The position numbers and the translations under genes are program-made. A stretch of 45,881 bases of DNA from Vermamoeba vermiformis (taxonomy: Eukaryota): NCBI GenBank assembly GCA_045837725.1, contig JBEWZL010000043.1, positions 186,001 through 231,881 on the forward strand, read 5' to 3'. Below the pieces are notes generated by a model. It saw nothing but the letters and a program-made list of their open reading frames with translations, was not told where the DNA came from and made no database searches. Below, in pieces: positions 13,842-44,025 of this stretch. Position 1 is the stretch's first letter. Each line of letters opens with the position of its first letter.

Positions 13842-15286
13842 TTGATTCAAGGCTCTTCAGGAGGGTCGAATAGCAATTCTTCGAAAATTGTAGGCTCACT
13901 GGGATAATCAAATTCCTCCATGTGGAGTGTAGTGAGATTCTCAAAAAAGGAGTATTCCTGGTACTCATGCTGATGCCACGGTACGCACAAGCGTACCTAA
14001 TTCTGTGAATCGTGGGATCTTCACGATAAATATAAATACTGTTGTAAACGCCTAAATAAATCATTCTCTCTTTATTACAAACAAATTCTAGGTGGCCAGG
14101 GTTAAAATTGTTGTAACCATGCTTAGCAAAGGCACTTCTGATGAGAGTAAGATGTTGCTCAGGGAGATAAAGAGTAGAAGGAGGATGAGCACAAAGAGAG
14201 TCAGTGATATCCCAAAATTTTATGGCTTGGATTTTTTGATCTCTGATCTGCAAGGCTAATTGCCCTGTTATATTTGTTCTGCCTCAGCCTCAAGCCCAGC
14301 AAGAAGGATAAGACCCCCCTGTCCAAAAGAATGATATCAAGCTTCCAAATGTTCACAATTTTCCAACTGAATTTCGATCTGCCCAAGGAAATTCCCAACG
14401 TTCTTCAAGTTGATGAATAGTTTGATACTGTTTGTTATTTGGCTTGCAAGGAGAAGTGGCTCATGGAAGATTTCTGCTGTGCCATGATTTTGAAATTGCA
14501 TTAATTGTGGGTGATGAGCCTTGTCCTATCTGCCTATATATCATACTTATTCCTTATTTTTGATTTTTAATCTGCTCAAATCTGACCCTATTTTTCAAAC
14601 AGAAAAAAGCAAGTCCCATGAAGTGGAAACTGAAGAAGAAAGAAAGTAAAAAACAAAAGAGGGTCAAGGCAGTGTAACTAAGTTTTGTGACCTGTTCTAA
14701 TTCATGCAGATTCCCAATCCAAAGGCTGGGAACAGATTGCAGCCAGCCTTATTCGATTTTTGAATGAGGTCCAAATGTCTTCAGTTGTCTTTAATGTGGA
14801 TGACTTCCATGAACTGTTGGACTGCTTGAAATTATTCATATATGTAAAAGGGCCTGGCCATATTCCGTAACCAACTACCACGTTAAATTTATTTTTTTTT
14901 GATAACACGACCACTTCAAGCATAGGCACAATAGTAACAATATGTAAACAACTATTACTTCGCTATAGATATAGTAGACTTTGATTGTCTAGAAAGGTAA
15001 GTCCAAATCCAGATTCGTTTTTTAAGATCTTCAGTACTTCTTCCTATTACGAGTTCAATATTCATATATATTATTATTATTATGGATGAACCGATTAAGC
15101 AAATTGTTAGCAGAATAATTAAATTGATTTTAATTAATTATGGTTCAAGCAGATCTCAACTCGTTCGAGTAATTTATCGATCCCGCTTCTAGATTGGGAC
15201 GAACTTTTAACGAGGTGAAAAATATCCCACTATTAAAGTGTAAACTTTACACTTTTAAAATAAACTTTACTTCTAACGTTACAAAC

Positions 15287-17825
15287 TTAAAATGGCCTCA
15301 ATGGAGGAATACAAATGTAAATTGTGTTGTTCTTTGCGCCCACTGAGAACTCAAACAAAGCAAGTGACTTTTCAAGCATCCAATTATGAGCTGTAGCCAA
15401 AGTCTTGAACGCAAGAGTCTCATTCTCGACCTCTTTTGTAATGAAAGAGTACTGCAGCAAAGTGTAGTTGTGATGTGCACCTTCAGGTAATCCAGCACCA
15501 AGCAACACAGAACGCTTTTTTTGGGCAGTAGGTAGCTTGACATTCAGAAAAGCGTGGGTTACTGTAAAGTTGTTAGTGTAAAGTTTACAGTTTACATATT
15601 TCAGTGGCACGTACGGTAGTATAAATACTGGTGCAGGGAAGAGGAGGTAGCCCCCCTGGCTTGCCCAGTAGGGCCCAGCAAAAACGATTTTTGCATCACT
15701 CCTCTTTTTGTTAACCAAAGTATGAACTTGCCAAGCCTGAGTTCCCCTTGAACAGAGATTAGATTAAATAAAACAAGTAATGGGGCACTTACATGCATCA
15801 GTTTTTTCATAGACTGAAGACACTGTGACTCCACATTCATGCGAAAATTCTGAAATGGCGGTTGGTGTTTCTTCAAGGTTATTTTCTTCTTCACCAGATT
15901 CACCAACCTCCCCAGCATCGTAACCGTCTACAGGCTTTTGTTGTTTGGCTGGTGCAGGCCTAGTGCAATTAGTAACAGTGCTTTATGTGTAATTAATATG
16001 CTTACAAAGGTGCCTTTTTATGCTTAGATACAGGAGTACGGGCTTGTTCAGGTTCCCCTTCTTCTATCTCCTCCTCAACATCAATTGGTACCCTGGAAAA
16101 TAAGTAAGTGTAAAGTGTAAAGTGTAAAGTTTACAGTTTCACTTACGATTTCGCTCCCTTTTTGCTCTTCTTTTTTGCACTTTGGGTCACTATTCTCTCC
16201 CCTTTGCCACAATTAGAGCAAATAATGATATTTTGTTTGACTTACGAATTCCAGCAAGCCTCTTTTGTTCTGCCTTGTCCACCATTGAAGTTCCACCCAC
16301 TATGGGTGTGTGTGACGCACGACATCCAACACTGCTCCGAGCTCAATGATTGAGGGACTTTCATCGGAATTCTGAAGGATTAGAGCACCATTGCTAGCTG
16401 TTCGTGCAACTTCCAACCAATCAACAGTCAGATGTGCAGAAGAGGTCTTCTTTTTTGGTGGTGCCTTCACAATAGCATACCATGTCTCTTCACCCTGCCC
16501 CAGAACAGCAACAAGAGACGATTTGTGGACAGTTGCTAAAACATCTGCAGTAGCATATGGTTGGGCTGAGGCGTCACGTAAGCCTGCCAACGAACGCGGT
16601 TAGTGTAAAGTTTACAGTGTAAAGTTTACAGTGTAAAGTCTACAGCTGTACGTACCTTCGGGCAAGGATGTTTGCTTAGTTTTCTTTTCCTGCTGCTGCT
16701 TTGCTGTTGTCTCCCTGCGAGGCTTGCTATTCTTGCTGGTAGTATGATTGCTGCGCTCCTCGCTGCTATTTGCATCACTTAAGTCAGCTGCAGAGCAAAT
16801 TCAGAGTTAGATCACCAAAGATTGTTTTAAATGTAACTTACCTTGCTCTTTTTCTTCATCGGATTTGTCGGAAATGTTTGAGCGATCATTTGTGCGTTTG
16901 CTACGACTATTTGTTTTCTTGGCAGCACCTTTGTTGTCGCGATCTGGTGTGGGATTAGTGAAAGTGGAATTTGTTGAGATTTGAGATGAGACTTACCCGT
17001 ACGCTTCTCAGAGCGGGACTTGCCAGGTGCATGAGCGTGTTGATCATCCTCATCATCGGCATTATTTCCATCAGTTTCAGCAACTTTGGTGTTACGATCT
17101 GGTGCGGGATTAGTGAATGCGAATTCGCTTCAGATTGAGATGAGACTTACCCTTTTGCTGCTTGGGGTGGGAATTGCTAGGCACGTGAGGACGCTGGTCG
17201 TCCTCCTCATCGGCGCTATCACCATCAGTTTCAGCACCTTTGTTGTTGCGATCTGGTGCTAGATTAGCGAAAGTGGAATTTCTTTAGATTTGAGATGAGA
17301 CTTACCTGTTCGCTGCTCGGAGCGGGACTTGCCAGGCGCGTGAGGACGCTGATCGTCCTCCTCATCGGCGCTATTGCCATCAGTTTCAGCTCCATTATTG
17401 TTGTTAGCTGACACGAGATTAGCAAAAAATTAGATTTGGAGATTCGAGATGAGACTTACCTTTTTGCTGCTCAGAGTGAGACTTGCTGGGCGCATGAGGA
17501 CACTGGTCATTCTCGACATCAACGCTATTAGCATCTGCTTCCGCACTGTTGTTGTTGCGATCTGGTGCGGGATTAGCGAAATTGGAATTTCTTTAGATTC
17601 AAGATGAGACTTACCTGTTTGCTGCTCAGAGCGGGACTTGCTGGGTGCATGAGGACGCTGGTCGTCCTTGTTATTGATGCTATCAGCATCGGTTTCTTCC
17701 GCTTTGTTGTTTCGATCTGTTGCGAGATTAGCAAAACTGGAATTTCTTTAGATTCGAGATGAGACTTACCTGTTAGCTGTTCGGAGCGGGACTTGCTGGG
17801 CGCGTGAGGACGCTGGTCATTCTCC
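15287..17825 (-). pseudogene. 5'-truncated multi-exon nuclear protein with tandem 34-aa exon repeats and a Tudor/SH3-barrel-like segment
   Basis: Repeated exon NNNGAETDGNSADEEDDQRPHAPGKSRSEQRT; segment SSLVAVLGQGEETWYAIVK..LTVDWLE; frameshift in a (CA)n run at ~16305-16314; breaks off mid-exon at 17825. Confidence 0.6.
16840..17825 (-). repeat. ~155-bp exon+intron tandem repeat, 5 full copies plus one truncated and one diverged copy
   Basis: gagatgagacttacc (reverse of donor GGTAAGTCTCATCTC) recurs at ~16983, 17137, 17293, 17446, 17601 and 17756. Confidence 0.9.
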
Positions 17826-18221
17826 TTATTATATATACTCTAGGGCTAAAATTTTTGCTAGGGTTTCTTGTGTATTGATTTTTTCAAATAAATAAACAAA
17901 AATTTCAAAACACTGTTAAAAAAAGCGTCCCCACTGAGGGGATGCTTTTAGAAAACCGTCCCCTGCGTGGGGACGCTTTTGGCCTTTTTTCCTTTTATGG
18001 TAATGATAAATTTTTAAATCAAAAGAGAATGGCCTAAGAGCATAGCAATAGAAGGGTAGAGTTGTCTAGCTCTAAACCAGCTTAATAGAAATTTCTTTAA
18101 GATTATTTTTGTTTTTCAGGAGCCCTAGAAGGAGCCAAAAATAGGATCAAGGAAAACCATGCTTCAATTATCTCATTCTATTAAACAAGTGCTGGTAGGT
18201 CTTTTACTAATGTACTGAATC

Positions 18222-18337
18222 TGGCCCCTGCTAGCAGGTTTACCAGGGCTGTTGAAAACATGAAAATTTGGCCCCTGCTAGCAGGTCTACCAGGGCTGTC
18301 AAAAACATGAAAATTCGGCACCTGCTAGCAGGTCTAC
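18222..18337. repeat. 47-bp tandem repeat (3 copies) centred on palindrome CCTGCTAGCAGG
   Basis: Palindrome at 18227, 18274 and 18321 with a shared spacer taccagggctgt..aaaacatgaaaatt. Confidence 0.9.
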
Positions 18338-18423: not shown

Positions 18424-18800
18424 CCCCTTTGTGGGGACAGGGTAGGCATCTCCTTCGTGGGGAGGGGGTAGGCATCCCCTTTGTGGGGATGGGGTAGGCA
18501 TTCCTTCGCAGGGACGGGGTAGGCATCCCCTTCGTGGGGACGGGGTAGGCATCTCCTTCGAGGGGACGGGGTAGGCATCCCCTTCATGGGGACGGAGTAG
18601 GCATCTCCTTCGTGGAGACGGGGTAGGCATCCCCTTTGTGGGGACGGGGTAGGCATTCCTTTGCGGAGACAGGGTAGGCATCCCCTTCGTGGGGACGGGG
18701 TAGGCATTCCCTTTGTGGGGACGGGGCAGGCATTCCTTTGCGGAGACGGGGTAGGCATCCCCTTCGTGGGGACGGGGTAGGCATCCCCTTTGTAGGATGC
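18424..18800. repeat. 24-26 bp G-rich minisatellite (gtggggacggggtaggcatccccttc), ~14 copies
   Basis: Directly visible; tcccc-N5-gggga inverted repeat across unit junctions; solo copies at ~17926, ~17977 and ~18872. Confidence 0.95.
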
Positions 18801-18923
18801 ACCTGCCAAAAAGAACACTACACAAACTTATTGAAAGTATTTGCTATGGATATTCTTACAACACAGCACACATCCCTTGTGTGGGGATGCAAAGGTAGAA
18901 AAGGAGTTGAAAAACTGCTTTTG

Positions 18924-18959
18924 TTAGGGCTAGGGTTAGGGTTAGACATAGGGTTAGGG
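18924..18959 (+). repeat. Interstitial telomere-like tract, six in-register hexamers
   Basis: TTAGGG CTAGGG TTAGGG TTAGAC ATAGGG TTAGGG. Confidence 0.75.
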
Positions 18960-19084
18960 GCAGTGGATCAAAGAAGCAGGAGTGTTTACAGCCATCGGGT
19001 TTGGGAGCAAGGAATGGCCCCCAATGGCTGGAAATTGGCATGGAGAGGGCCTGAAAAAGTTTAACAAAAATCAGAGCAAAACAA

Positions 19085-22000
19085 ACGAAATTGAACATGA
19101 ACATCTTAATTCAATTTCGTGACAGCTTAGAAAGATAGCTCCAACAATGAGCTATTGGGACCAGTAAGGGTCCCTGATAAAATTGATAAGGTAAGCGAGA
19201 AATAGCGATGGGTCCCAAGGGCGCTCGAGGGGATCAGGATCGCTAACTTTAAGAGAAATATTCATTTGAGATTTTAATTGATTAGATGTTGTTTAGACTG
19301 CCGAGAAACAACGCGGAAAAATACCAGAAAAATTCTCGGTCCCCAGGAAGTGGAGAAAACGTTGCGGAGATCCGCCTTGTCAAATTGACGGATCGAAGAA
19401 GAGCAATGAACAATTAATGGCTTTAGTATAATTTGGGGTATGTAATAATAACAATTCTGGCAATAATTTATTTTTTGGCTGTTTGAGGTCAGATTTGAAC
19501 CTCGATCTCAATTTAAATCTGCGAGATGAATGAGATTCTCGTTACTCGCGTCATCCAATTGTCTCATTAGTTTAAATAAAATCATTTTAAGAAATTCTGT
19601 GTTTATTACAAACTTAGCCAAGATCGCACCCGTCAATTTTTCTTCAAGTCCGTGACAGATCGACCACAAGGGTCGAATTGAACATTCAGCTGATTTATTA
19701 TTATTATTTAGACGCTATTTCAATTGACAGTAACACGCCACGGCATCAGAGCCGTTACAGCGCGAGTTATTTTTGGAACAAACCGGTTGCGAAATTGGTA
19801 GATCGACCACAAAGGGTCGAATTATTGATTATGTATTAATTATTAGCACCTGTTAGTGACGCGCCACGACGACAAAGTCGTTCAGCGCGAGTAATTTCGG
19901 ATTAATCAAAATCGCACGCGTCAACTTTAGAAACTATTTTTAAAACCTTAGACAGATCGACCACAAGGGTCGTTTTATTTATTTTTCCGTTTATTTACAG
20001 CTGATAGTAACGCGCCGTGGCATCAGAGCCATTCCAGCGCGAGTTATTTTGGAGGATCTGCGGATTAGAGCTGATGCGAAAATGGCGCACGGGCTATTTC
20101 GCATCAGTAATTCAACAGAACAACCACAAAGGTCGTTATATTTATTTATTGTTGTTTATTACCAGCAGACAGTGCCGTGCCACAGTCAACACGGCCGTTC
20201 AGCGAGTTATTTTGAGGATTGACAGTAGCAAATCTAGGATTCGCAACAGATCGACCACAAGGGTCGATTTGGTCAATTAGATTGGTCGTTTATTATTAAC
20301 ACACACGTGCCAAACGACATTCAGCGTTGTTCCAGCGCGGCGTTAAGATCGCGAACAAGTAGGCGAACAATCTCGGTGCAGAGACCGAGAATATTCAAGG
20401 TAATATTTTCTTAATATCCTTCCACCATCTTTATAATTATAATATCGTAAATTCAATTTTTAAGTTTTCAATTAAAAAATCAGATCCGGATCGAGCTTAG
20501 TGCTCGGATTTTATCCGGATTTTTAATTAATAACGATTAAACTATATTAAGTACAACATACTGACACGTAATTTTCTATTTAGATTTTCCTTACGAACTT
20601 TAAGCGCGATCGAAAGTTCCAGCTACTTTCGATGCGCGAGATCCCGACCACCAATGGTCGTTTCATGGTACACTGGCACTTTCCGTTCGTGTACCACTGC
20701 TGGGACCATCACCACTGCTCGCCGACGGCTTCGGTTACAAGATGACGAGATCGGATGCGTTGGACGCATCAAAATAATTGGTAAGTTTGATTTTAATAAT
20801 ACCAACAACCAATAAGACGCAAGGAATGCGTCATTTTCAAATTTAAAATTACACTAATAATTTAAATTAAATTGTTATTACGGATCGAGCTTCGCCCTTC
20901 TGTAAAATTAAAATTGTTGTTCATTTCATTACTAAAACAAAATATTAATCACTATTTAAAAGGCTATTGGAACGTAAGCAAAGATGCGAGTGCTAGATCG
21001 AGCGCGACAGTCGGACCGCTCGATGACTGGCAATGAATCAAGCGTAAGTAGATTAAATCTTATATTTTATTGTAATTTAGTATTTTAATGCGTTTTATTT
21101 AGGTTTTATACATTCACGATGACATATCTCGAACGTGATCTTCTCGCGTTAACAGTTTCGATACTCTGTGAAATATAGCCCTGTAAGTATTCCCAGCCTC
21201 AGATATTGGTAGGTACTAACGTGTTATATCATTAGAAATGGACAATGCAAGCCCTCAAAAAAATTATCAAGCTCGAGATCCACCGCATTCGGATTCAACT
21301 TTTGATAGGGCATCGATCATGCCATGGTGAGTTCAAAGCTTTTACAATAACCAATATATGCTAATACCAATTCTATTACTAATTTTAGTTTATTTAGGAC
21401 TTAAACGGATGAGAGCACAGGATCCCGCTCGGGATAGGAGCTGATCTATCCCGTTATTTAAACGATCGCATGAGGACTCCTAGACGCGGCAAGTAAGTAC
21501 ATAGTTTACCATGGCTAGTACTAACACTTTAATAATCTAGAGTTGCGCAAGGCACTGATTAGACTAGTAGGCGTGGATCCGAGATGCATCGATCTCGATC
21601 CAGTAAGTACTTGACAGTGCGCATCGATTGCGCCAAAAGTAAGTAGATCGCATTAAACACTGATTCTATAACTTACTGATATAGTTTCTACTTAGAGAAG
21701 AGCACATTAGCAGTTTTTACGGATGTTAAAATGCGATCTGACGAGGATTTATTGATTCATGCCAAATTATGGTCCCGTAAGTAATAAAAGACGATCACCC
21801 ATATTATCTCAAACTAATATTTTTACTCAGAGGCTATCAATTCGGCGACATTATAGAGAAATCGAATCCGCAACGACTTTCACCAGATTTTTCGATTTTT
21901 AGAACGCACCAAGATCTGACGAGCAATTTTAAACTTGTAAAAGTATGGTAAACTTGTAATAGAACTTAATAAAGCAATTTCTTGCTTATAAATTGATCTA

Positions 22001-24450
22001 TAAATCTTGCGGTTGGGAATCACGAAAGATTTCGCTGGTTAGTTTTTAAAAACTTTGACAGATCGACCACAAGGGTCGAAATATTTATTAAAAATTGTTA
22101 ATTAACAGCAGACAGTGACGCGCCACGGTCGCCACGGCCGTTCAGCGCGAGTTATTTCGAAGATTAACAATGCGAATCTTGGATTCGCAATAGATCGGCC
22201 ATAAGGGCCGATTTGTGCATTTTCACTGTTTAGATATTATCAGTACACACGCGCCAAACGACATTCAGCGTCGTTCCAGCGCGGCTTTAAGATCGCGAAC
22301 AAAACGCGATCAAATCTCGGTGCAGTGACCGAGATAAATTAAGGTAAGATTTTTTTATACACTTCCGCCATTTATAACATTAATCTATCGTAAATTCAAA
22401 TTTAAAAAATTAATTAGATCCGGATCGAATTAATTAGTGCTCGGACTTTATCCGGATTTTTAATTAATATCGATGAAACAATACTAAATATAATATATTA
22501 ATACTTCATTTTTTATTTAGATTGTGCTCACGATTTTTTACCGCGATCGAAAGTTACCGATGCCATTAATCCGTCAAGACCCTTAAAATAACTCGGTAAG
22601 TTTTTTAATATATTCAATGGTGATAGAATAATCGTACCAATGCGTCGATTATTCATTTCAAAATCAAGTTAAATTTTTTAAAATTATATTGAGTCAGATC
22701 GAGCTTCGTGCTCGTGCAAAGTTTAAATTATTGGTTATTATACTATCAATACAATATAATAATGGTTTTTTGAAAGGTTATTTCGGTGTCGTCTGCGCAG
22801 ACGTGATGTGTGGATCGTTCGCGAAGTCGATCGCTCAATCCCCGCTAATTCTTCAAGCGTAAGTAGTTTAAATTTATTATATTATTACTATTTAATATTC
22901 TAATGCTATTTATTTAGGCGTTAAAAGTTACACGGGACGGATCTCGAACGCGATCTTCTCGCGTTGTTAGATCCATTACATTGCTTGTGGTGGACCGGTA
23001 AGTACATATACATATAGAAACCATCCATAACTAACGCATTATATCAATAGAAATGGCGAAGGAGACTTCTGTTGAACATTTACCAGATCGGGATCCAACG
23101 CGTCTCGATCAGGTAAAATTTCTCTACGGGGCATCGATTGCCTTAAAGGTAAGTGATCCCCCTTATATATTAATATTTTAATCAACTGATGCTAATTTTA
23201 CGCCTAGGAGATGACACGGAGCTGGGGCCAGAGATCGCGCACAACTAACCCGATCTCTCGTAAGTTCAGTGACGCGCATTGATCGCGTCAAAAGTAAGTA
23301 AAATTGATTTTGTATTATTATTGTAAGATACTAACATCTTTATTTCTTATTAGAACCGTTGGATAGAATTTTTGGTGGATTTGGTGGCGTAAATTTTGGA
23401 CTTGGCGCTATCTCGGATCGCTGACAAAAGTACGGCTCTCAATAGGTAAGTTAATTTACGCTTTTATATTATATCTAATCAATTATTAACTCCTTGATAT
23501 TGTAGAGTTGAGGCGTGTTTGATTTCGCCACAGATCCCCGCGGGGCCCCATTGATCCCGCTTCAGTAATTAATTGCGCGCATCGATCGCGCTGAAAGTAA
23601 GTAAAACATGTTAATAACTCTTATTACAACAATTTGATATCATTTTTATTTCTTTTAGATAAGAGTGCGTTAGCATTATTTACGGATGCTGAACGCGATC
23701 TGACGCGAGCAATTCTGATGGTATACGAGAATTTAATGATCCGTAAGTAGCATAAAACGATTAACAGTGTATAATAATCTAATCTATTTCCTCAGAGTCA
23801 TTGAATTTGATGACGCTATAAAGAAATCGGATCCGCAACTTGAACGGATTCACGACTCAAAAACGAAGTTGGAAGCATGAAGGTAAGTTCTTTTAAAGAC
23901 ATTAGTTATTTTTATGGGCTTACTAACGTGGTTTTACGAGTAGATTCAAGTACTATTTATTTACGCCACCGATCTTTGAGGCCCGCGTTGATCCCGTTCA
24001 AGTTTACGCAATTAGCAACGTAAGTATTTACAATTATTAGTATAAATGTTATTGAAAATAAATTGAGATAAAGTAATTGAAATAAATTGTAGGGATCATC
24101 ACCACGAAAATAGATCGGCGCTAAATCTAACATTAACACTGCGCATCGATTGCGCCAAAAGTAAGTTTAAAGCGTACATTACCAAATACAATATTTTAAT
24201 ATCTTTAATTAATTATAGTTTGATAACACGAGACTGACTTAGCGGATGTGCGCGGGATCTGCGCGCTTAATTTTCAAGATAGGCGAAGATTCAAGACCCG
24301 TAAGTAATATATAACGATTGTGCTATACAGTGACTAACATATTATAGCAGTAGATTGGCTAAAACAGTTAAAGTAGCGAAGAAATGCGATCCGCAACTTG
24401 AGCGGATGCGCGATCCTGAAATTGGCGGGTGATTGCTTGGTAAGTATTAT
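19085..24450 (+). ncRNA. Putative long, multi-exon, hairpin-dense non-coding RNA locus (may extend to the AATAAA at ~25855)
   Basis: More than 20 GTAAG/GTGAG donors with CTAAY..YAG acceptors, all on +. Exons 20963-21043 and 24219-24299 have stops in all three frames. Most exons contain stems, and internal duplicates show compensatory changes. Transcription is inferred, not shown. Confidence 0.65.
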
Positions 24451-24600
24451 TTTCGTTTAAATATAATATTAAAGTGTTGGTTTAATTATTATATGAAATT
24501 TAATACTGCCTCGTTAACTTTTTTTTCAGTTTTCTGTCGGTTTTCTGTGATCACAGAAAACTGGCTGACGAGATTTCTTGGCACATGCTTTCGTTTACGT

Positions 24601-28370
<3,770 letters not shown>

Positions 28371-31300
28371 TTTGCCCATGTCAGTTGTGCGGATCGAACA
28401 AACTTTGTTTTAATTGAACCGCTATGTAAAACAGAAAAGCTTGCCTAATGCCCTTTAAAATATACATAAATATATTCTAATGGACTGATAGTCTGCCAGC
28501 GAGCGAATCTGGCAACAGGATTCGCAAAATATATTTCAAAATTTAGTGCGGATATGTTAATAACTTGCTTGGTCATAATATATGTGAAAATTGGTAATAT
28601 TCCGATCGATTTGGAAGGTGCTACAGAACAGCGAGAGACAATTAGATTCAATTTTTTAAATCCGCTTTGGCCCGAAGCTCGCAACTAACCGCACTTCTGC
28701 AGAGTTTCTTGTTTTTGCCGGAGGATTGGGAGCTTGCGACCATTTCAATGCCTGAGGTTGTTTCTATGAAGGTGCCGAACGCTCGCTGTCATACCGGGAG
28801 TTGCCAAACCACTGGTGACGTTTATAAGTAAGTAGCTTCAAAACTGGAGAATCACGCTTAGCCTTCTATCGTAGGTTACCACAGCTGGACAATCTTTACT
28901 GTTTCGGATGTCTCAGCTCTGGAAGCGTATTAATCAAGGAGAACGCTCGTCCTTTTGCCGAAGAAGCTAAACTGAGATATCGGTTGTAAGTTTTGGTTTT
29001 TCTAGCCGATGGCATTTAACCGCACATTGCAGCGAAAACTTTCGGAAGATCGCACGGCACCAGGTCATGAAGCTTATCGAGAAAGCCAAAGTTTGGGACA
29101 ACGCACAGGGAGCAGTGAGCGCAACACTGCTCGTCAACAAGAAAGATAGGTCACAGTTTACCTACAGTGTCTTTGCGGGTAAGTTTCAATAGCATGGATG
29201 CTCGGGATCCCGATCTAACCAAGTACAATTAAGGTCATCACCGAGCTTTTGCCATCCGGCACTTGATGGGGCGGTTGCAGTTTCAAAATTACTGCATAAA
29301 GGTGTTTTTGTTTCCCAATGAAGAGGTAAGCAAGTAGAATCTTAGCAATTTTCATTGGTGCAACTAAATACTCTTTGCATAGGAGCTACGTAAACACAGC
29401 ATCCAATTGCAAGAGCTGGAGGAGATTACCATGGAAATGTGTCCCATGGACAAGGTTGTTGCCGCTCGCAAGGAGATCGAATTAGCCTTCGAAGATAGCC
29501 ATGTAGACAGTTATGATAAACTGTCTGCCGTGATGGTGGCCCACCTGAAACATACATATGGAGGTAAGTAGCTAGCCAATTCTTAATATGTATTTAACTC
29601 CGCACTATTGAACAGCGGAGAACGTCAAAATTGCCTCCGCAATTCCATTGCCTCTGCTCGAAAAATTACGTGAGCTCAGTTTGTTCACGCTTGCCTTTGC
29701 AGATGCGTCAGAGTAAGATCGGCCGAGAATTTAGATGATGTTCTGCTAATCAAATCTTAGAACTCCTTTTCCGAAACGTTCTCTAGCTTCCTTTTGCACC
29801 GGCTCGACCCAAGAAGAGATCTTCGAAGTTATAAGTCCGTTGATCGATGAGTACTGGCAATATTATAAGTACTGTAAGTGTCACCAAGTTATTTAAATTT
29901 TTTAACTTTAGTTTATTTAGTGTATACGTCAAAAAATATGGTACAAAAGAAAAAAGGCCAGTTCACGAAGGCTACGCTGGATGAGTGGCTAAAAGAAGTC
30001 AGGGAAAAGCTGGCTAAAATTGAAATTGAGCCCGGTAAGTTCAATATATTAGTAGAACTTAATAGCTAATTGGTTTATTAGAAAAAACTTACGAAATGCC
30101 CAATGTAAACCACTCGTTGTATTATAATAAGATACAACGACAATTTTTTGATGCTTGCGAGAAAATCTTGGACATGAAACAAGTGAGTATCCGCTGAGAA
30201 TTATTTAACAACTCATTCTTACCGTCTTCAGGCTGCATGGCCAAAAGAGCTGACCTCAAAAGCTAAGGTAGTGTTTGATACCAAGTGTATCAAGCACTTA
30301 AAGGAATGTGAGCAGAAGAAGAGCTACACGCTAATAGCTTGGGATAGTGACCAGTACAAAGCAGATATTCAATCTCTGCAATGTGGCTTGTACTGGCACA
30401 TGCCCAAAGAGACTCTGCTGGAAACGGCCAAAGCCGAAGACCTTCCCGTGGTTTTGGCTTTGCCGAAGTTTCCTCAAGATGCTGACCTTGCCGTTGTTAG
30501 TGGATACAATGGGCTTATACTTGGTACGTAATTCAATTTTGTTTACATTATTCTGACTACCTTTAGTACCAATGGTTGGAAGTCACAACTTTGTCACCGA
30601 GGCAAATACTTTGTTCTTCAACATTGCTGGAACTGCTCTGTCATTGTTGGTGAAGAATCTGAAGCTTCCTAGTGGACAATTAGCGAACGAGTACTTCGTC
30701 GAAGTACTCACACGTTCTTATTTTGCCCTTGCTTCGGTAAGTACGTCAACTACTTAACTGTCGTCTCATGTTGTTTTGTTAGACCGAATTCTTCATGAAA
30801 CAAAGGCTTGATAAAAATAATTTTGAGCAACAGTTGCCAATGACAATTTTATCTTGTTTGAATGCACGTAAGTACTCAAATCCGTTTTAATGATAGTGAC
30901 TAACCCTTGTGTAGTGCATATTTGTTGTGGCAAAAAGTGTGCAAAATTGGCTGTCATTGGAGAGATGACTGAATCTACTATGGTGGACTTAATGCACTAC
31001 TCTCTCTCCATTGCCCATTGCTCAAAGACGGCACTTGGGAACCGCACCATCCCTCTTCCTGCTTGTTTGCCAGAAGTGCAGTCTGTGGTTAAAGTTGCTC
31101 GAAGTTGGCTGCCAGCAGGCAGTCAGCCCAATCAGCCCAATCAGCCCAAGAAGACACTTGCCTACCAAATAAGGCTTGGAGCTTTGGCTTCGGAAATACA
31201 ACGGCAGCCTATTCCCACCCCTGTTGTAGTTGTTTTCAGTGGTCAGCCTGGAGGTGAAAGGCATGACATTAACAACCAGGCATGCATCCCGCCAACTCTC

Positions 31301-33341
31301 CCTTTTCATGGTTCACGTAAGTTACAACGTACCAAGTTTAGACTAGTTTATAATTGTTTTAAATCTAGGATGGTACCCAACCGACAAATTGAGCTTGGAT
31401 GACCTCGAGCAGGTCAGCAAAGGGGAGGATGAGATAATCAAGCTTCTGTGGCCGAATTTATCTTGTAATGTTGCACAATTTTCGTATTTCTATTCTTCTG
31501 GCTGGCAAACACACGGATCCGTAAGTTTGACTAAGCAAATATTTTGTGTTTGTAACATTTGCTTTAGGGTTGTGCTCAAAAATACCTTTTGTTGCCAAAT
31601 TTCAAAGGATCAATATTTTGGGTGGTTGGTAAGGCCAACGCAGGTGATGTTATCCCAGCACGTAAGTAAAATTACGTATAGTCATATCATTTTCTAACTA
31701 ACTTTATGATACAGTCAATGCCGGAGACAAGCTTATGGCGAATTATTCGGCATTCCTACAGTCTCCTGGGGAACAGATCGTTTTACCAATCGCGACAAAG
31801 CGCTATTACTTCTTCGTGCTGCCGTCTTGCAGTCCTGGGGGTGAATGTAGCAGCACAACGGCATTTCTTGTGCGGCAGTGGGTGCTTACAAGGCATGAGG
31901 CTTTTTACATCTCTCTTGCCAAGCAGTCAAAGCTGGATTTCCTATGGATTTTACTACAGTTTGCAAACAAGCCATGGACAATGAGCATATCGAAGAATAT
32001 TTTCGATCTCTTCCGTGAATTTATCAGTGATTGGCTTACGTTGGATGGTCTGACAGCACTTGTCTGTGAGGATAAAAATGGCTTCTCTGGTTGGAAATAT
32101 TGCAGTACTTGCAACAGTGTGATGTCTCTGCTGGTTTTGTACTCCCAGAGTCTCGTAGCTTATTGCATCCGCTGTATGAAGACTGCCTCTGTTAGAACGC
32201 AGAAATGTATCACTGCAGTCGCTCTGGGTCAGAACTCTGCCAAGTTTTTGTTAGTTCAAGTTGCACGGTAAGTGGCAGCGATATTTGTTCAAATAGTAAC
32301 TTGCAGCTTCGCAGGGCAATTTGCAATTTAATTAATGGTCCCCATTATCCTACTACTGAGAAGGAAAAGCACTTGCAGACAGCCAACAAGCATCTTCAAG
32401 TACTTATTGAAAAGGCTAAAGAGTCTAAAAGCGAGATAATTCCAAAATTGCCTATTGCATTTTGGCGTGGAGAACCAACTATGACCTTCCGGCCCAAAGA
32501 TGAGTTGGAAGATATCGAGCCCTACACAGGAAAAGAAGAGCACTTTTCAATGAGTCATCGCGAAGCAGCAAACGACGCAGCGAGCGAGGCAGAGAGAGAA
32601 GCAGAGAAAGGAGCAGCGAGTGAGGAGCAAGAAGAGGAAGAAGAAGAGGATGACAGCGAAAGCCTTCAGGATAGTCGCAAGAGACCAGGAGAGCCACTTC
32701 CAAACCCTCAAGCAATGAAGAAGCCAAGGACGGCATCGCAACCTCAAGCTAAAAAATAATCTTTGTATTCATAAATAAACTACTGTGGAGCAGTTTTAAA
32801 TAGCAAATCGCCCTCTTCAGCATTCTTGGTACTGTACGGCTCTTTGGTCGCACCAGCTGCTAGTTCACACAATTGGTGTAACGAGTACGCAGTACAAAAA
32901 ATTGTACTCTTTCTTTACAACTTTTTTATTGATAAATACTAAGATAATGTAGAATATTTAATATGCATAAAATAAAAGCAATTGATGTGCAGTTATTCAG
33001 TCATTGTAGTTATTCAGGTGCGGATGTGCTGAACAGCTTAGCAAATATGCTTGTCAGGATATCGTGAAGGGTTTTGAGGGCTGTCTGGAGTTTTTTCCTG
33101 GCCGATATAATCCAAATCCAAGTCGAAATCGGTATTTCTCGGGCCTTCATGGTTTGGATCTTGACGCTCGGCTTGTGCTCGTTGCTTTTCCATGTAATGA
33201 TGTTGAAAGTGTGGGTAAGGGTCTTCACTTAAGTCCTCTTCTTCTGATTGGCTGAAACTTTACAAAAAATATCAGTTGTAGCAAAAACCGTTCATTGTTT
33301 GGTCTGTTTTTCATCGTACACCACGCAACTGCCACAACATA

Positions 33342-34817
33342 ATGGAGAAGAACTCTACTACCTCTCAAAGTGTTTCTCAACACTTGGACAACATTCAGGA
33401 AGTGTTCTCTTGGTCAGAAGACAGTGTAAGTTTGGATTTAAGTATACAACAGTTTTTTCTCGAGCATTGCAAGGATCCTCTTTCAAAATTATGTTATTCC
33501 AGATCAATTGAATTCATGCATAAAATAACATTTTATTATTTTATGTATTATTTTGCCCATATCTTAAATTTTACAGTTCCAAAAAACCTTGCAACGCTTT
33601 TCAATCATTCTTGCACTGCCTCCAAATTATTTTTGCAACAATTCAAGGCTAGCCTTAGTCCTGCTAGCCAAGAATTGGAAATACTTCTTTTTACAGGAGA
33701 CCACGGCGACGATTTCTACCTTTTACTATTTTTGGTTGGCTACTGTTCAGGCTTAAAGAGCAAAGTGATTAATGGTCCTTTAACTGTTGAATCCTTGAGG
33801 AAACTAAAGCACATTGCTGTTGTGGATATTGAAAAATACTCTCAACAACTTAAGGCTCTATCACAAGTTATCATCCAAGTTGACGAAAGTTTGCAAACGC
33901 CGGATCAAAGTGACAGTCAAACAAAAAAGCGAAAGTTAGTTGAATCCACTGAAGACAGCCCAGAAAGTAAAAGGAGGAAGATTGCAACTGAAAGTCCCTT
34001 GCAAAGAATTGTTGCAAATGCATCAAAAATAAAACAAAGCCAGGCTCCTGATCCCACATCAAGTCCAACTTCTAAAGGAGTGGTTTCTGGTTCAATTGAT
34101 GAAGATGATGATTCCAGTGAGGGGAGTAGCGAGGACAGCAGTGATGAGAGGGATATTGATGAGAGCAATGATGAGAACAATTCCAACAACAATTCAAACA
34201 ATAATGATTTGGAACCCAAAAAATCAACAAGAAAAAGATCCCTTCCAACAAAAGAAGACAAAGAAAGGTTAATGGAAGTATCTGAAAAGATTAATGGCTT
34301 AATTACTCACCATGGATCTGGAAAAGAGTTTGACTGGGCAGATCAAGCAACATCTTTGGCAGTCAAACTCATGCGCTCATTGGGCCCCTTTGGTGTCTAT
34401 TTTTCAGTGTCCAGAGAAAAAGGAAAACTACTGCTCAACTCAGTTGGCAACATTTACTCTTCAAAGACTATGGAGCTTAGTGAAATGGCCCAAGTTTCAG
34501 TAAAAATGGTTAACAAGCACAAATTAAAGGGATCTTTGCGAGTGGACTCTGAAACCAACCAAAATGAAAAATTTCTTGGCTTGGATCTCTCAAGAGCTCA
34601 GTTTCAATACTTGTCTACTGCTACTTTTGCAAAAAAATTGTATTCTCTATTGGTGAGAGGAGGTCCTGCTTTACACATGTCTGAAGAGCTGGCAAAGTTG
34701 TACTTCAACATTCCAGACATACTTGTAGGATACTTCAAATCTGAGGAAGCACAGAAAGAGATTATAACAAAGATGGACATTAAAGGGTGTTTAGGGCCAG
34801 GGCTGGCCAGTTTTTAA
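33342..34817 (+). CDS. Hypothetical nuclear protein (acidic tract, NLS-like motifs); 3' end possibly truncated by the adjacent repeat element
   Basis: 491-codon ORF that may include in-frame introns near 33426-33576; KKRKL and SKRRKI motifs; final codons overlap the ttagggccagggctggcca motif. Confidence 0.6.
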   Translation: MEKNSTTSQSVSQHLDNIQEVFSWSEDSVSLDLSIQQFFLEHCKDPLSKLCYSRSIEFMHKITFYYFMYYFAHILNFTVPKNLATLFNHSCTASKLFLQQFKASLSPASQELEILLFTGDHGDDFYLLLFLVGYCSGLKSKVINGPLTVESLRKLKHIAVVDIEKYSQQLKALSQVIIQVDESLQTPDQSDSQTKKRKLVESTEDSPESKRRKIATESPLQRIVANASKIKQSQAPDPTSSPTSKGVVSGSIDEDDDSSEGSSEDSSDERDIDESNDENNSNNNSNNNDLEPKKSTRKRSLPTKEDKERLMEVSEKINGLITHHGSGKEFDWADQATSLAVKLMRSLGPFGVYFSVSREKGKLLLNSVGNIYSSKTMELSEMAQVSVKMVNKHKLKGSLRVDSETNQNEKFLGLDLSRAQFQYLSTATFAKKLYSLLVRGGPALHMSEELAKLYFNIPDILVGYFKSEEAQKEIITKMDIKGCLGPGLASF

Positions 34818-34868
34818 AATAAAATTGTACTTCAAACATGGGTAACCTTGTTCTTGGTGCAGCAGGAG

Positions 34869-35805
34869 GGCGTCAGACGGTCTGACGGCCTCTGGCAAGG
34901 GGGGGTGCATCAGACGGTCTGACGGCCTCAGGTGCAAAGGCATTGCACATGCACCTGCACCTGCACCCTCAGTCATGCACTGCAACAGCAAAGGGCGTCA
35001 GACGGTCTGACGGCCTTGGGATGGGGGGGTGCGTCAGACGGTCTGACGGCCTCAGGCAAGGGGGGGTGCGTCAGACGGTCTGACGGCCTCTGGCAAGAGG
35101 GGGTGCATCAGATGCAATGACCATGCACCTGCACCTGCACATGCACATGCATCCATGCACTGCAACAGCAAAGGGCGTCAGACGGTCTGACGGCCTTGGG
35201 ACAGGGGGGTGCGTCAGACAGTCTGACGGCCTCTGGCAAGGAGGGGGTGCGTCAGACGGTCTGACGGCCTCAGGCAAGGGGGGGTGCGTCAGACCGTCTG
35301 ACGGCCTTGGGACAGGGGGGTGCGTCAGACGGTCTGACGGCCTTGGGATGGGGGGGGGGTGCGTCAGACGGTCTGACGGCCTCAGGCAAGGGGGGGTGCG
35401 TCAGACCGTCTGACGGCCTCAGGTGCAAAGGCATTGCACCTGCACATGCACAGGCACCCCCTTTTCCTGCACTGGGGCAGCAAAGGGCGTCAGACGGTCT
35501 GACGGCCTCGGGCAAGGGGGGTGCGTCAGACGGTCTGATGGCCTCAGGCAAGGAGGGGGTGCGTCAGACAGTCTGACGGCCTTGGGACAGGGGGTGCGTC
35601 AGACGGTCTGACGGCCTTGGGACAGGGAGGGTGCGTCAGACGGTCTGACGGCCTCAGGCAAGGAGGGGGTGCATCAGACAGTCTGACGGCCTTGGGACAG
35701 GGGGGGTGCGTCAGACGGTCTGACGGCCTTGGGACAGGGAGGGTGTGTCAGACGGTCTGACGGCCTCAGGCAAGGGGGGGGTGCGTCAGACGGTCTGACG
35801 GCCTC
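34869..35805. repeat. ~37-bp tandem array, 21 copies of the 17-bp palindrome CGTCAGAC-N-GTCTGACG
   Basis: Counted directly; G-rich spacers of two main types (ggccttgggacagggg / ggcctcaggcaagggg); interrupted by TGCACC tracts. Confidence 0.95.
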
Positions 35806-35957
35806 AAGCAAAGAGGTGTTGCATCAATCAAGCTAATACTATTAGAATAGGGAAGTACGTAAGAGAGGCAAACAGTCTAGAGATGATGGCACATAGGTTC
35901 GACTTTGGACTGTAGTCTTTGTGCTTGGGGAAGATGTTAGGGTATGTAAAGGGGGGA

Positions 35958-36972: not shown

Positions 36973-37236
36973 AATTATCCTTAGTTGTCTATATTTTGAA
37001 CAAAAAATACAGTTAGTCACAAAGTCACGAGAGCTGGATATTTTCAGTTATATTATGCACATAAAAGTATTTAGCACATCAATATTTACTTGAATTGTTT
37101 CTGGAAGCTGCAGAACCTTTCAGATAAACAGTGCACCAGTGCGTGCATCTCATTGGTACTGGTGCACATGCACCTGCACCTGCACTTGTACATGCACCTG
37201 CACCTGCACCTGTCGCAAAGGTAATTTTTATTCTGA

Positions 37237-37773
37237 CTATTCTTGCATAACCTCATTATACAAGTCCAGTGACATCTTCTTTATGGCATAGAGATCACAA
37301 TGATGATTTGCATTCACGATCACCCGAAGTACAGAGGACGATCGATGAGCTGCAGCAATTTGCCAGAGAGAAGTACCAGTGTTCCAACCAACAAAAACGG
37401 CGTAATCAATTATACACCCATGATCTCCAATGGCTGCAGCCTCCAAAGAAACTCCGAGAGGGGCACGAAGAACTGTATGCGAGTAGATCAGGCTGGCAAG
37501 TTGACCATGTAAAGCAGCTGCTTCACATGTATCGCTGGTAGGTTCAACTCCTTGAGCGACAAGTGCCATCATGTACTTGATCTTCCCCTTTGAAGCCAAG
37601 TAATTCAACATCTTGCCATCACAGAGCTGTTTTGTTCTTTTGCAAACCAATCGCACAGCAGAGAGACTCCACAAGCAAGATGAATAATTGGCCATTAATC
37701 TGCTCTTGTCGACCAAGTCAAACTTTGATGGACGTACAATGTGGATCGGATCTAAGTTGCAAGGGTCCAGCAA
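37237..37773 (-). CDS. Divergent ankyrin-like repeat protein
   Basis: TCEAAALHGQLASLIYSH and SLEAAAIGDHGCIIDYA resemble the TC..AA..GHL..L.W.. ankyrin variant; preceded by AVRLVCKR (F-box-like). Confidence 0.5.
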   Translation of the reverse strand: MLDPCNLDPIHIVRPSKFDLVDKSRLMANYSSCLWSLSAVRLVCKRTKQLCDGKMLNYLASKGKIKYMMALVAQGVEPTSDTCEAAALHGQLASLIYSHTVLRAPLGVSLEAAAIGDHGCIIDYAVFVGWNTGTSLWQIAAAHRSSSVLRVIVNANHHCDLYAIKKMSLDLYNEVMQE

Positions 37774-38165
37774 TTTTATACCTATTGTAAGGAGGCCCGT
37801 AATATCAGGGTAGGCTTTCTGAGTAATTAAATGAAGAATAATTAATTATTTAATTTAAATAAAATAGTTCTTGAATTAAGAAAACAAAATTTAAAATTGT
37901 AGAAATGCTTAATTTAAATTGAAACTCACCAAATCTGAGATGAAGAGATTTCCACCAGGCTCTGAGACTGCTTGTATTTCAATAGAGCAAAAAGTAAGCT
38001 TTCTCCTAGTTTGTCCAGATCTGCGATGAAAACCATTGTTAATACTACAACATAGAGTAATAATGAATATTGGATTGATACAGTACTTTTTAAAAGATGA
38101 AGCCATGAGTTTGTTTGGATTCTGCAACAAAAAAAATGTACCGAACAACTACAATTTTTATTTAT

Positions 38166-42174: not shown

Positions 42175-43574
42175 TCAAGTAGTGTACAATTGTCTTATTA
42201 ATTCAGCTTTCCTACGTTGCCTTTGATTTTTTCTCTTTTTTCGTTTTTGATCGGATGTTGGATCAATGTTGAAAGTGAGTTCAGTGCAATTGGTCTTTCT
42301 GTTGTCAAGCAACAACTCCTGCGTGCAGTGTCTAATTAACGGGCTCTTTAAAGTATATTAGTAACAAGTGTAAGTTAAGTTGGCCGGATGGACGCACCAA
42401 ATCTGGATCGCTGATTAAGAGGGCTTGACGTAATTCAGCAGCTGCCCACCAGTTAAAAGCTCCAATACCAATATCTTTGGGTCCAATTACATTGACTTCA
42501 ACTTGTTTCCAACGATCTGTTGAGGGTGGTTCCTCCTGCAGAAGTAGCTCTGGGGTGAAGCAGGAACCTCCAGAGGGGATACGCATTGCACCTGCACCTG
42601 CAGTCAATGTCCCTACTTCAAATTTGATTACTTTGGCTCGTTTTCCAGTACGGAGCAACACTGATGGTTGCCTGTAAACTCGTATGAAAATAGATCTGAA
42701 GTCCAACCATCTCCATTCATTGAACTTGACAATTGCAGTGTGGCTATCAGTGTATCGATGTATGTAGTTATCCATGTACGTGAAGTATACTCGCACTATC
42801 TGCACCAGGTTTGCAATCCCACCACAGGCATCAATGACTTCGGTAAAGAGCATCCAAGGGCGTACTGAGAACTGCTCAAACAAGAGCAGGCTAATCTCAG
42901 AAGCAGAGTAGCTACCAATGCCATTGAACAGCGATTGATTGAGTAACGCATGGTGAAGTGAGGCAAGCTGAAAGATAAAACGGTCGGTTAGGTGCAGGTG
43001 CAGGTGCAGGTGCAGGTGCAGAAGTTTGTACTTTGAAGTATTTAGGATACTGAGTTATGGCTGCCTCCAAATATTGTTCAAAGTGATTACAATCGAGTAT
43101 ATCAGGGCCACGGTTATCTTCAAATGCAGGCTGATCTGGTTGTAAGTATTTAAAGGTTGCTTGATTACGAAAACTGTTGCAGTCTATCATAAAAATTGCT
43201 TCATCCCCATCTAATTCGAATATCATGCTTGTTCGGTCATTCATTGGGTAGTTTTTGATATCAGAAATATCTCCAATGTAGAAATTGGCGCCTTGTCCCA
43301 TACTAAATCGGATCTTACTTCCAGTATTATATATATACTTAGGCTTAGTCCTTTTAAGGGTTATAAGCCTTTTCCTGCGGGATAACCCCAAAATTGTAAC
43401 TTTTATAAATAAACTAGAATTTCACTATACAATTTCAAGTTTTGTATATTTGGATTGTGTGTTTTTCTGTGACATAACCCTGAACCATCCAAGATTCAAA
43501 AAATACAGATTCGGTGGTTTATTTTATAAAAGGAGTTTACAATTACAAGAAACCAAGGTGTATCTCCCTGGCAT
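42175..43574 (-). pseudogene. Fpg/Nei (NEIL1-like) DNA glycosylase/AP-lyase homologue, probably disrupted
   Basis: Removing intron ~43030-42969 joins RGPDIL..YPKYFK to LASLHHALLNQSLFNGIGSYSASEI (H2TH motif; cf. NEIL1 LLDQRFFNGIGNYLRAEI). Upstream SRRKRL, RFSMG and FMID..F; in-frame MPG at 43574 is followed by stops. 3' end approximate. Confidence 0.7.
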
Positions 43575-44025
43575 TGCTAAAAAACCAAGGCGTTGGGGTA
43601 AGTCAAAAAAGTTATAAATAAAATTGAAAATTGTATGTTCATTTTATCAAATTTGGTACACTTGAGGCTACAGTACCAAGGCTTGCACGGCAGAAGGGCT
43701 AGCACTAGGGCTTGTGTAGGGGTTAACAAATCTATATATACAAAATCAAAATCCGTATATATATATTTAGTAACTATGCAAAAAGACAGAATGCTCGGTG
43801 CCAATATCCATGTGCTGATGCACTGGTACAGCAACTGGAATTTTTTGTTAATATGTATAAAGAAAAATGATAATTGTATATATGAAAATAAAAGTATCCA
43901 TACGATGCACTTGCCTGCGGCACTTTGCAGTTTTGCTAAGTCGAGTCCATTTCTATATAAACAAGAATCAAATTTGTATATACGAAATATGGGGTTTGGT
44001 TGTGGAACTTGGAAACATTTGCCAA

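Follow-up and report, generated by a model that had tools for sequence, protein, structure and literature searches.

Architecture of the Locus

The subject of this analysis is a multi-exon hairpin locus of Vermamoeba vermiformis, situated in a stretch of 45,881 nucleotides (nt) (NCBI GenBank assembly GCA_045837725.1, contig JBEWZL010000043.1, positions 186,001 to 231,881), which is referred to as the window and in whose numbering all positions are given. The locus lies on the forward (+) strand, where it probably spans approximately 19.1-25.3 kb, and it is composed of two diverged tandem copies of a spliced unit: the region of ca. 20.1-21.97 kb aligns with that of ca. 22.04-23.9 kb. It has no coding capacity, its exons carry an excess of short hairpins that its introns do not share, and it probably represents an undescribed family of structured non-coding RNAs. 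Both the tandem duplication and the highly structured long first exons were overlooked in an earlier sequence-only reading.

On the basis of splice signals, 25 GT..AG introns can be placed on the + strand between 20400 and 25159. Their donors are GTAAGT in 20 cases, GTGAGT and GTAAGA in two cases each and GTAATA in one, and a CTAAY-like branch site is found 10-30 nt upstream of the acceptor in nearly all of them. Most introns are minimal in size (48-90 nt in 21 of the 25), the other four measuring 177-184 nt. The density of GTAAGT on this strand, with 20 occurrences in 20-25 kb vs 0-3 per kb elsewhere in the window, follows the same picture, and the canonical splice signals reported earlier throughout the locus are thus borne out. 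The end of the extent proposed at the same time, ca. 5.4 kb from 19085 to 24450, was set too early, as similar exons and introns continue to ca. 25.3 kb. This 3' continuation (24440-25300) contains four further GT..AG introns (24440-24529, 24822-24888, 24966-25015, and 25108-25159), and the part beyond 24450 probably belongs to the same transcript. The continuation exons contain a 91-nt hairpin element twice, at 24600-24690 and 25195-25285. Two hairpins make up this element, one with the 7-bp stem GTCTTGC and the other with the 7-bp stem CCTCCCT and a loop that contains GATC. The two + strand copies of the element are 96% identical, two partial copies are located near 28.3 kb (28254-28343), and it could represent a small repeated or mobile unit.

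Splice sites are retained between the two copies at six of eight aligned donors and at seven of eight aligned acceptors. Since the copies are only 63-66% identical, splicing appears to be under selection, while most of the exon sequence does not. The substitutions that separate them comprise 278 transitions and 344 transversions, and repeat-induced point mutation was rejected on this basis. Between the copies, an AATAAA signal is read at 21968-21973, at the end of copy 1, and is followed by two TATAAAT boxes (21987-22005), which precede the first exon of copy 2 by 35-50 nt. The boxes point to a separate promoter for copy 2 and, together with AATAAA, suggest the presence of two genes rather than one.

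The first exons are the most distinctive part of both copies. The first exon of copy 1 (19600-20399) comprises five tandem modules of ca. 130-165 nt (19.65-20.4 kb), recognized from repeat families, alignment and module folds, and that of copy 2 (22040-22343) comprises two. Each module is built of a hairpin termed H1 (GATCGACC-ACAAG-GGTCGA), an AU-rich spacer, a nested hairpin termed H2, in which an outer CGCGC/GCGCG stem encloses a variable inner stem, and one or more further hairpins. In copy 2, seven consecutive short hairpins, H1-H7, are lined up as beads on a string, and no other block of the locus is as strongly structured. The first exon ends in hairpin H7, nine nucleotides ahead of the donor. 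Upstream of copy 1, a block of three consecutive hairpins (19080-19200; fold z score -4.98) includes an 11-bp stem at 19085 and an H1-like GGGACC/GGGTCC hairpin at 19157-19174; it may belong to the transcription unit as its 5' portion or lie in its promoter-proximal region.

The first exon is followed in both copies by a long intron 1 (20400-20583 in copy 1 and 22344-22520 in copy 2). In copy 1, this intron contains a hairpin at ca. 20483-20525, formed by the outer stem ATCCGGAT and an inner CGAGC/GCTCG stem (z -3.58); its counterpart at ca. 22417-22460 is nearly identical in the alignment. According to the splice model, exons 2-9 and introns 2-8 of copy 1 occupy 20584-21975, with exons of 80-197 nt, and exons 2-14 and introns 2-13 of copy 2 occupy 22521-24439. 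The downstream exons are mostly short (68-115 nt). A three-exon sub-repeat of ca. 560 bp is present once in copy 1 (21541-21945) and twice in copy 2 (23506-23882 and 24093-24439). The second long intron (20781-20962; 22596-22776) terminates in AAAG instead of YAG in both copies.

A further repeat family, identified by alignment, consists of hairpins with a fixed CATCGAT center, here called X-type, at 21309-21323, 21619-21633, 23128-23144, 23270-23290, 23575-23591, and 24141-24155 on the + strand. They are exon-terminal in six exons, 4-6 nt before the donor, and in four of these six exons a second donor-like GTAAGT/GTAA is located 32-36 nt upstream, across the hairpin. Both recurrent motifs are strongly over-represented: CATCGAT occurs six times on the + strand in 21.3-24.2 kb and 16 times on both strands of the whole window (4.6 expected), and the H1 motif GACCA-N3-6-GGTC is found seven times on the + strand of the locus and nine times on both strands of the window (0.54 expected). 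No further copy of the locus is present in the other 40 kb of the window; RNA reads show that one or more homologous loci exist elsewhere or in a different strain.

Coding Capacity

The lack of a long spliced open reading frame (ORF), already stated in the sequence-only reading, is confirmed. In the spliced model of 3,826 nt, the longest stop-to-stop frame encodes 107 amino acids, and 11 of the 21 downstream exons, among them the two singled out previously (20963-21043 and 24219-24299), contain stops in all three frames. The ATG at 23053 of copy 2 opens 56 codons, as had been noted, and the exon start AAATGG that follows the intron is common to both copies (21236 and 23051); on reading the sequence of copy 1, the frame from the same ATG is stopped after 31 codons. 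Twenty ORFs in 19.0-24.5 kb measure 55 amino acids or more; ten of them were searched against Pfam, and none reached the cutoff. Downstream of the locus, no + strand ORF longer than 123 amino acids occurs within 4 kb. Neither an open frame running over the exons nor, among the ten ORFs searched, a similarity to a protein family, as would be expected of a protein-coding gene or a recent pseudogene, was found.

Hairpins in Exons and Introns

Hairpins were counted as perfect stems of at least 7 bp with a loop of 3-15 nt and compared with dinucleotide shuffles. Over 19001-24500, 25 such stems are present vs 6.3 ± 2.0 in the shuffles. The excess is found both in the first exons (7 vs 0.7 ± 0.9) and in the downstream exons (9 vs 1.2 ± 1.2), amounting to 16 stems vs ca. 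1.9 expected in 3.0 kb of exonic sequence. In contrast, the introns (1.7 kb) contain 6 stems vs 5.0 ± 2.3, which is no excess, and the same holds for seven long control ORFs of the window (7.6 kb; 10 vs 6.5 ± 2.6). With a lower threshold of 5 bp, a stem is present in 18 of the 21 downstream exons, compared to 11.8 ± 2.1 expected. In agreement with these counts, the 18 short introns show a mean fold z score of +0.07, with no value below -2. The hairpin excess is therefore specific to the exons, and a process acting on the DNA alone would not be expected to spare the introns.

The stems listed in the sequence-only reading are present, at 19085 and 20071 (11 bp each, the longest perfect stems of the locus), 20609 (9 bp), 20666 (8 bp), and 21430 (8 bp), and those at 23079 and 24389 are seen in the exon folds; most of the other stems measure 5-9 bp. 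Many are built of self-complementary, CpG-containing words (GATC, CGCG, TCGA, ATCGAT, CCGG). GATC reaches 9-16 per kb in the locus vs ca. 3.5 expected, and CpG 1.5-2.2 times its expectation.

Folding energies identify several blocks as strongly structured. The first exon of copy 2 (22040-22343) gives the most negative z score, -7.54 on the + strand and -4.60 on the minus (-) strand, followed by the first exon of copy 1 (19600-20399, -5.22), the upstream block 19080-19200 (-4.98), 20584-20700 (-4.73), 24530-24821 (-3.91), 23051-23148 (-3.66), and 25160-25300 (-3.00). The spliced downstream exons reach -2.34 in copy 1 (exons 2-9) and -3.00 in copy 2 (exons 2-14). Nine control stretches of 800 nt gave -1.09, +1.09, -0.94, -0.47, +0.12, -3.99, +1.28, -0.82, and +0.67, with a mean of -0.46 and one of the nine at or below -2.3. 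This one, 30001-30800, lies in a region with + strand GTAAGT donors, and four of its ten 100-nt windows have a z score below -2. When the locus is folded in sliding 100-nt windows irrespective of exon boundaries, the mean z score is only -1.6 to +0.3 per kb, because such windows mix exons with AU-rich introns.

Retention of Structure between Copies

Comparison of the repeated parts indicates that pairing is preserved in two different ways: some hairpins, such as H1 and H7, are conserved in sequence, and others retain only their loop or center while their stems are replaced, as is the case for the CATCGAT center and for the inner stem of H2. The nested H2 is kept in six of the seven modules, with five different inner stems in the module folds. 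For the count of its base pairs, five of the seven modules were used, the other two being out of register in the alignment; in these five, 95.8% of the cells are paired and two pairs are changed on both sides. Such values were reached by 17 of 500 shuffles, and control positions obtained by sliding pair at 12-54%. The X-type hairpins behave in an analogous manner, as five different stems surround the fixed CATCGAT in the six copies of the window, and a sixth stem is found in the homologue detected by RNA sequencing (RNA-seq).

A direct comparison of the first exon of copy 2 with that of copy 1 shows substitutions at 21 of 132 stem positions (16%) and at 46 of 167 unpaired positions (28%). With regard to the local pairs, 46 are unchanged, 6 are altered on one side with pairing kept, 2 are compensatory, 11 are broken and 2 fall in gaps.

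RNA-Seq Evidence

Three unstranded RNA-seq runs carrying the same species label were searched against 18800-26500, with ca. 13 million reads sampled from each. Partial matches were obtained for 19-34 reads per run, at only five cores of 27-39 nt: 20372-20399, 20636-20662, 22051-22089, 22809-22844, and 23207-23239. Each core shows one fixed base difference and is at least 95% identical to the sequence of the reads, while the flanks are unlike those of the window. The flank consensuses of the partial reads agree with each other at 0.83-1.0, which indicates that a single homologous locus accounts for essentially all of the reads; this could be a paralogue, or the same locus in a strain that has diverged. 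The retention of such short cores between dissimilar flanks points to purifying selection on particular hairpins.

The reads also provide information on splicing. The last base before the predicted donor of the first exon, 20399, is joined to the exon 2 core in 10 reads (1, 3, and 6 per run). By eye, the letters preceding 23207 in the reads resemble the end of the preceding exon and not the intron, and they form a CATCGAT-centered hairpin with a different, perfect stem. Likewise, around 22809-22844, the homologue carries at the homologous place a hairpin with a different stem, again as judged by eye. A member of the family is thus transcribed and spliced at the predicted sites, with its hairpins kept. 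Exon 2 of the homologue begins ca. 48 nt downstream of the best acceptor in the window copy, so that exon boundaries vary among family members. For the two window copies, expression and transcript ends are predicted from the sequence.

Comparison with Known RNA Families

The previous statement that no known family is recognizable in the region agrees with the Rfam search, which gave no match at the gathering thresholds over the whole window. At E ≤ 5, the stretch 18800-25400 yielded only two sub-threshold matches to microRNA (miRNA) models (26.8 bits vs 52.5 and 19.6 bits vs 90). No tRNA or tmRNA was found in the window, and no small nucleolar RNA (snoRNA) of Rfam was matched in the introns, the 18 short ones (48-90 nt) folding like shuffles. 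Several isolated resemblances were dropped, namely, hammerhead-like CTGACGAG words, a CAGUG loop similar to that of an iron-responsive element, a Sm-site-like AUUUUUGG, a tRNA B-box-like GGGTCGAAT, and a possible telomerase template limited to CTAACCC (7 nt); in each case, the remaining defining parts were absent on reading and Rfam gave no match. Metagenome scans returned no stretch containing the H1 21-mer and none containing the core 22812-22841. Full-text searches of the literature, covering main texts, found no description of such an RNA family.

The closest functional parallels are provided by long non-coding RNAs (lncRNAs) in which repeated stem-loops recruit proteins, such as roX1 and roX2 of Drosophila, with their roX-box stem-loops, and the A-repeat of Xist. 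Several copies of a motif-bearing stem-loop are likewise present within one non-coding RNA here, in the form of H1, H2 and the CATCGAT hairpins, and the locus resembles these RNAs in its fast evolution, in the variable number of its modules and, possibly, in the redundancy of its copies. In contrast to them, it shows no sequence similarity to either, possesses dozens of minimal introns and tandem gene copies, and lies in a genome with introns of the fungal type. Another parallel is offered by lncRNAs that act as sponges or decoys, namely, meiRNA of S. pombe with its DSR motifs and NORAD with its Pumilio sites, in that arrays of many short recognition elements reside on one RNA, which suggests multivalent binding; however, their elements are single-stranded motifs, whereas the units of the locus are stem-loops. 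With snoRNA host genes of the UHG/GAS5 type, the locus shares a spliced multi-exon non-coding transcript (25 introns, no ORF, and a spliced homologue) in which splicing is kept and exons drift. Unlike in these hosts, its introns contain no known RNA and are, for the most part, 48-73 nt long and unstructured, the structure being exonic.

Two further systems were considered on account of their repeats and symmetry. Introner-like elements and sister stwintrons of fungi are repeated structured introns located inside coding genes, and the locus shares with them fungal-type consensus splice signals in repeats, internal symmetry, predicted structure, and nearby donor pairs (PMC9024468). It differs from them in that its structure is exonic, its host is non-coding, and its introns are alike only between duplicated positions. 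In line with this, no near-identical introns at unrelated positions were encountered, as the repeat families link homologous duplicated positions only, although a separate all-against-all comparison of introns was not made. The second system, replication template switching, can create hairpins and seemingly compensatory changes (PMC8794818). Short perfect stems, apparently compensatory changes and a hairpin-prone genome are features common to both; template switching is nevertheless a mutational mechanism and not a gene family, and it does not predict an excess limited to exons.

Neighboring Sequence Features

The window has a G+C content of ca. 40%, and the introns of its genes are short, with GTAAGT as donor, CTAAY as branch site and YAG as acceptor, which is a fungal-type arrangement. 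A Pfam search of 18 ORFs of the window identified only ankyrin and SET domains, and the SET ORF matched only generic SET clusters in the protein atlas. Searching longer proteins for homologues likewise yielded none. On the - strand, the middle part (16923-17826) of a protein-coding gene at ca. 15.9-17.85 kb consists of tandem units of 155 bp (5.8 copies, or 2.9 copies of a 309-bp double unit), each with one exon of ca. 101 nt and one 54-nt GTAAGT...CTAAT...CAG intron. Whole exon-plus-intron units therefore expand in the manner of minisatellites in this genome.

Minisatellites with hairpin-forming units are located at 18424-18790, 34995-35811, 44056-44628, and 18218-18337; their units are a 26-bp CCCC..GGGG, a 37-bp GTCAGAC..GTCTGAC, a 43-bp unit with an 11-bp stem and a 47-bp unit with the palindrome CCTGCTAGCAGG. 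They give the most negative sliding fold z scores of the window (-2.9 and -3.9 per kb). A telomere-like tract of the TTAGGG type, with ca. 5 imperfect units and the G-strand on +, is present at 18924-18959, ca. 130 nt upstream of the first hairpin block; it is the only one in the window and could indicate that the region is subtelomeric or, alternatively, serve as a promoter element. CpG is strongly depleted at 14001-15000, 33001-35000, 37001-38000, and 43001-44000 (9-21 vs 30-44 expected per kb). A 511-amino-acid ORF in one of these stretches (33282-34817) has no Pfam match. The CpG contrast suggests methylated repeats beside an unmethylated island, namely, the hairpin locus.

Interpretation

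The hairpin excess confined to exons, the retention of splice sites at ca. 35% divergence, the frozen cores, and the hairpins with a fixed loop and variable stems are best accommodated by a family of structured lncRNAs. We therefore favor, with somewhat more confidence than doubt, the reading that the genes belong to a family encoding spliced and structured non-coding RNAs, in which the exonic stem-loops serve as a multivalent binding platform; our confidence is higher for the description of the locus and lower for the mechanism. The two window copies are best explained as old tandem genes from a small family, of which one or more other members are expressed, whether elsewhere or in a divergent strain. 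In this respect, the large structured spliced lncRNA proposed in the sequence-only reading finds support in the absence of coding capacity, the kept splice sites, the hairpins limited to exons, and the spliced reads of the homologue.

Under such a reading, each gene copy would be transcribed from its own putative TATA box. The long first exon would supply a variable number of ca. 150-nt modules, each a string of 6-11-bp stem-loops, and would be followed by many short exons (68-115 nt), separated by introns of minimal size whose splice signals are near-perfect. Once mature, the RNA would accordingly take the form of a chain of short GC-rich stem-loops on AU-rich linkers. Multivalent binding is the most likely mode of action that we infer: a single stem-loop-binding protein, or a small number of them, could be bound in many copies by the repeated stem-loops, or the stem-loops could pair with each other through their self-complementary loops (AUCGAU, GAUC). 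The numerous efficient introns might serve the processing, export or stability of the resulting ribonucleoprotein (RNP).

A number of observations weigh against a selected RNA structure. Exons (63% identity) are no better conserved between the copies than introns (66%), and copy 1 has lost 11 of the 65 local pairs of the copy 2 first exon, five of them in one hairpin. The covariation described above derives from 5-7 internal paralogous copies and not from independent species. The dyad of the X-type hairpins shifts by ±1 nt around its fixed center, which would also fit a renewal of palindromes at the DNA level. Stems containing G.U pairs number 23 on the + strand and 25 on the - strand, with no strand asymmetry, and the test of strand by G.U vs A.C stems is uninformative. 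Other parts of the window contain 3-14 stems vs 2.5-5.2 expected, so that the window as a whole is hairpin-prone, largely because of the minisatellites with hairpin units. Regarding folding energy, the minimum free energy of whole exons has a mean z score of -0.52 and falls below -2 in only two of 20 exons, 21541-21638 (-2.48) and 23051-23148 (-3.66). The earlier claim that nearly every exon folds into hairpins consequently holds for the aggregate excess of short stems and not in energetic terms; in the comparison of folding energies with shuffles, particular blocks are strongly structured and most single exons are no better than shuffles. Finally, the splice check by RNA-seq succeeded for the homologue, which is joined at the donor 20399|20400 and at the acceptor before 23208, but in none of the three runs does a read fit the window copies end to end; the flanks of the locus are also without reads, so that a strain difference is indistinguishable from silence.

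The most serious competing explanation is one that we regard as rather unlikely. According to it, the locus is evolutionary debris without an RNA function: a tandemly expanding multi-exon unit, formerly coding or never functional, in a genome that readily expands minisatellites and forms palindromes. It would still be transcribed and spliced owing to the good signals it retains, and its hairpins would be made or apparently repaired by replication template switching at quasi-palindromes and not by selection. Hairpins and apparently compensatory changes can arise in this manner (PMC8794818). Further agreement comes from the neighboring - strand gene, which likewise consists of tandem exon-plus-intron units (155/309 bp), and from the hairpin units of several minisatellites of the window, together with the shifting X-type dyad, the wobble-containing stems without strand bias, the equal drift of exons and introns, and the lack of observed expression of the window copies. 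A DNA-level process, however, does not predict that the hairpin excess should be limited to exons while introns equal their shuffles. Furthermore, at 34-37% divergence, the chance survival of a 6-nt donor is less than 1 in 10, yet nearly all donors conform to the consensus in both copies, and the 27-39-nt cores, at least 95% identical to the homologue between unlike flanks, indicate purifying selection.

A second possibility, which is very unlikely, is that the palindromes function in the DNA as protein-binding sites, such as the subterminal repeats of a non-autonomous DNA transposon or arrays for dimeric transcription factors, the transcript being incidental. The composition of the stems, with their self-complementary CpG-containing words, the abundance of GATC (9-16 per kb vs 3.5 expected), the 1.5-2-fold enrichment of CpG, the CATCGAT center fixed in sequence, the module number varying between copies, and the good folding of the minus strand (z -4.60 for 22040-22343) are all compatible with such a role. 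On the other hand, an inverted-repeat search of 18700-26500 gave only internal pairs of 14-25 nt and none at the borders, so that neither terminal inverted repeats nor other transposon ends were found, and the other 40 kb of the window hold no second copy and the scanned ORFs no transposase-like one. The half-sites of binding palindromes should remain conserved, whereas the stems are replaced here with pairing kept, and the excess tracks the exon boundaries.

It is extremely unlikely that the locus gives rise to small RNAs, as a hairpin-RNA, miRNA-like or mirtron-like precursor, or that it hosts snoRNAs encoded in its introns. Such a role would be in keeping with the many hairpins within a spliced non-coding transcript, the conserved hairpins in the two long introns, and the sub-threshold match of an Rfam miRNA model in intron 1 (26.8 bits vs a gathering score of 52.5). 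Dicer-type processing requires an extended duplex of ca. 20 bp or more, for which 11-bp stems are too short; since no perfect stem of the locus exceeds 11 bp, most measuring 5-9 bp, and the short introns are unstructured, the hairpin-RNA precursor put forward in the sequence-only reading, in the sense of small RNAs, is not supported, and mirtrons were rejected on account of the same introns (mean z of the 18 introns +0.07, with no value below -2). Reading of the long introns revealed no C/D or H/ACA box arrangement, and nowhere in the window does an Rfam family attain its gathering score. There is equally little probability that the locus is coding after all, as upstream non-coding exons of a downstream protein gene, as the source of a short peptide (56 codons from 23053) or through unusual decoding: the AAATGG exon start conserved in both copies, the 56-codon frame of copy 2 and an exon-intron chain running to at least 25.2 kb would suit it, but the copy 1 frame closes after 31 codons, 11 of 21 exons are closed in all frames, the 10 ORFs scanned match no Pfam family, and no + strand ORF longer than 123 amino acids follows within 4 kb.

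Significance

Starting from the favored family of structured, spliced RNA genes, a bolder proposal, which we consider unlikely, is that the locus exemplifies a new class of eukaryotic RNA gene. Its members would be intron-saturated, tandemly modular lncRNAs whose exons are selected for arrays of stem-loops with fixed, partly self-complementary loops (AUCGAU, GAUC) and which would assemble large multivalent RNPs or RNA-RNA networks, either by loop-loop kissing or through a dedicated stem-loop-binding protein. The near-perfect introns would themselves contribute to this mechanism, for instance through cotranscriptional loading of a complex at each hairpin adjoining a 5' splice site.

In spliced lncRNAs, selection is rarely visible beyond the splice sites, and structured ones are rarely so legible. 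In the present locus, three layers can be separated from the sequence, namely, near-perfect introns kept over 35% divergence, drifting exons, and stem-loops that are either frozen or re-paired. If the locus is debris, it would illustrate how a hairpin-prone genome that expands repeats can mimic a structured RNA gene, which would call for caution in structure-based screens for non-coding RNAs. If it is functional, it would offer a compact natural system in which to study how stem-loop arrays and dense splicing contribute to RNP building, and, as a case from outside the animals, it would enlarge the small set of lncRNAs whose modular architecture can be tested.

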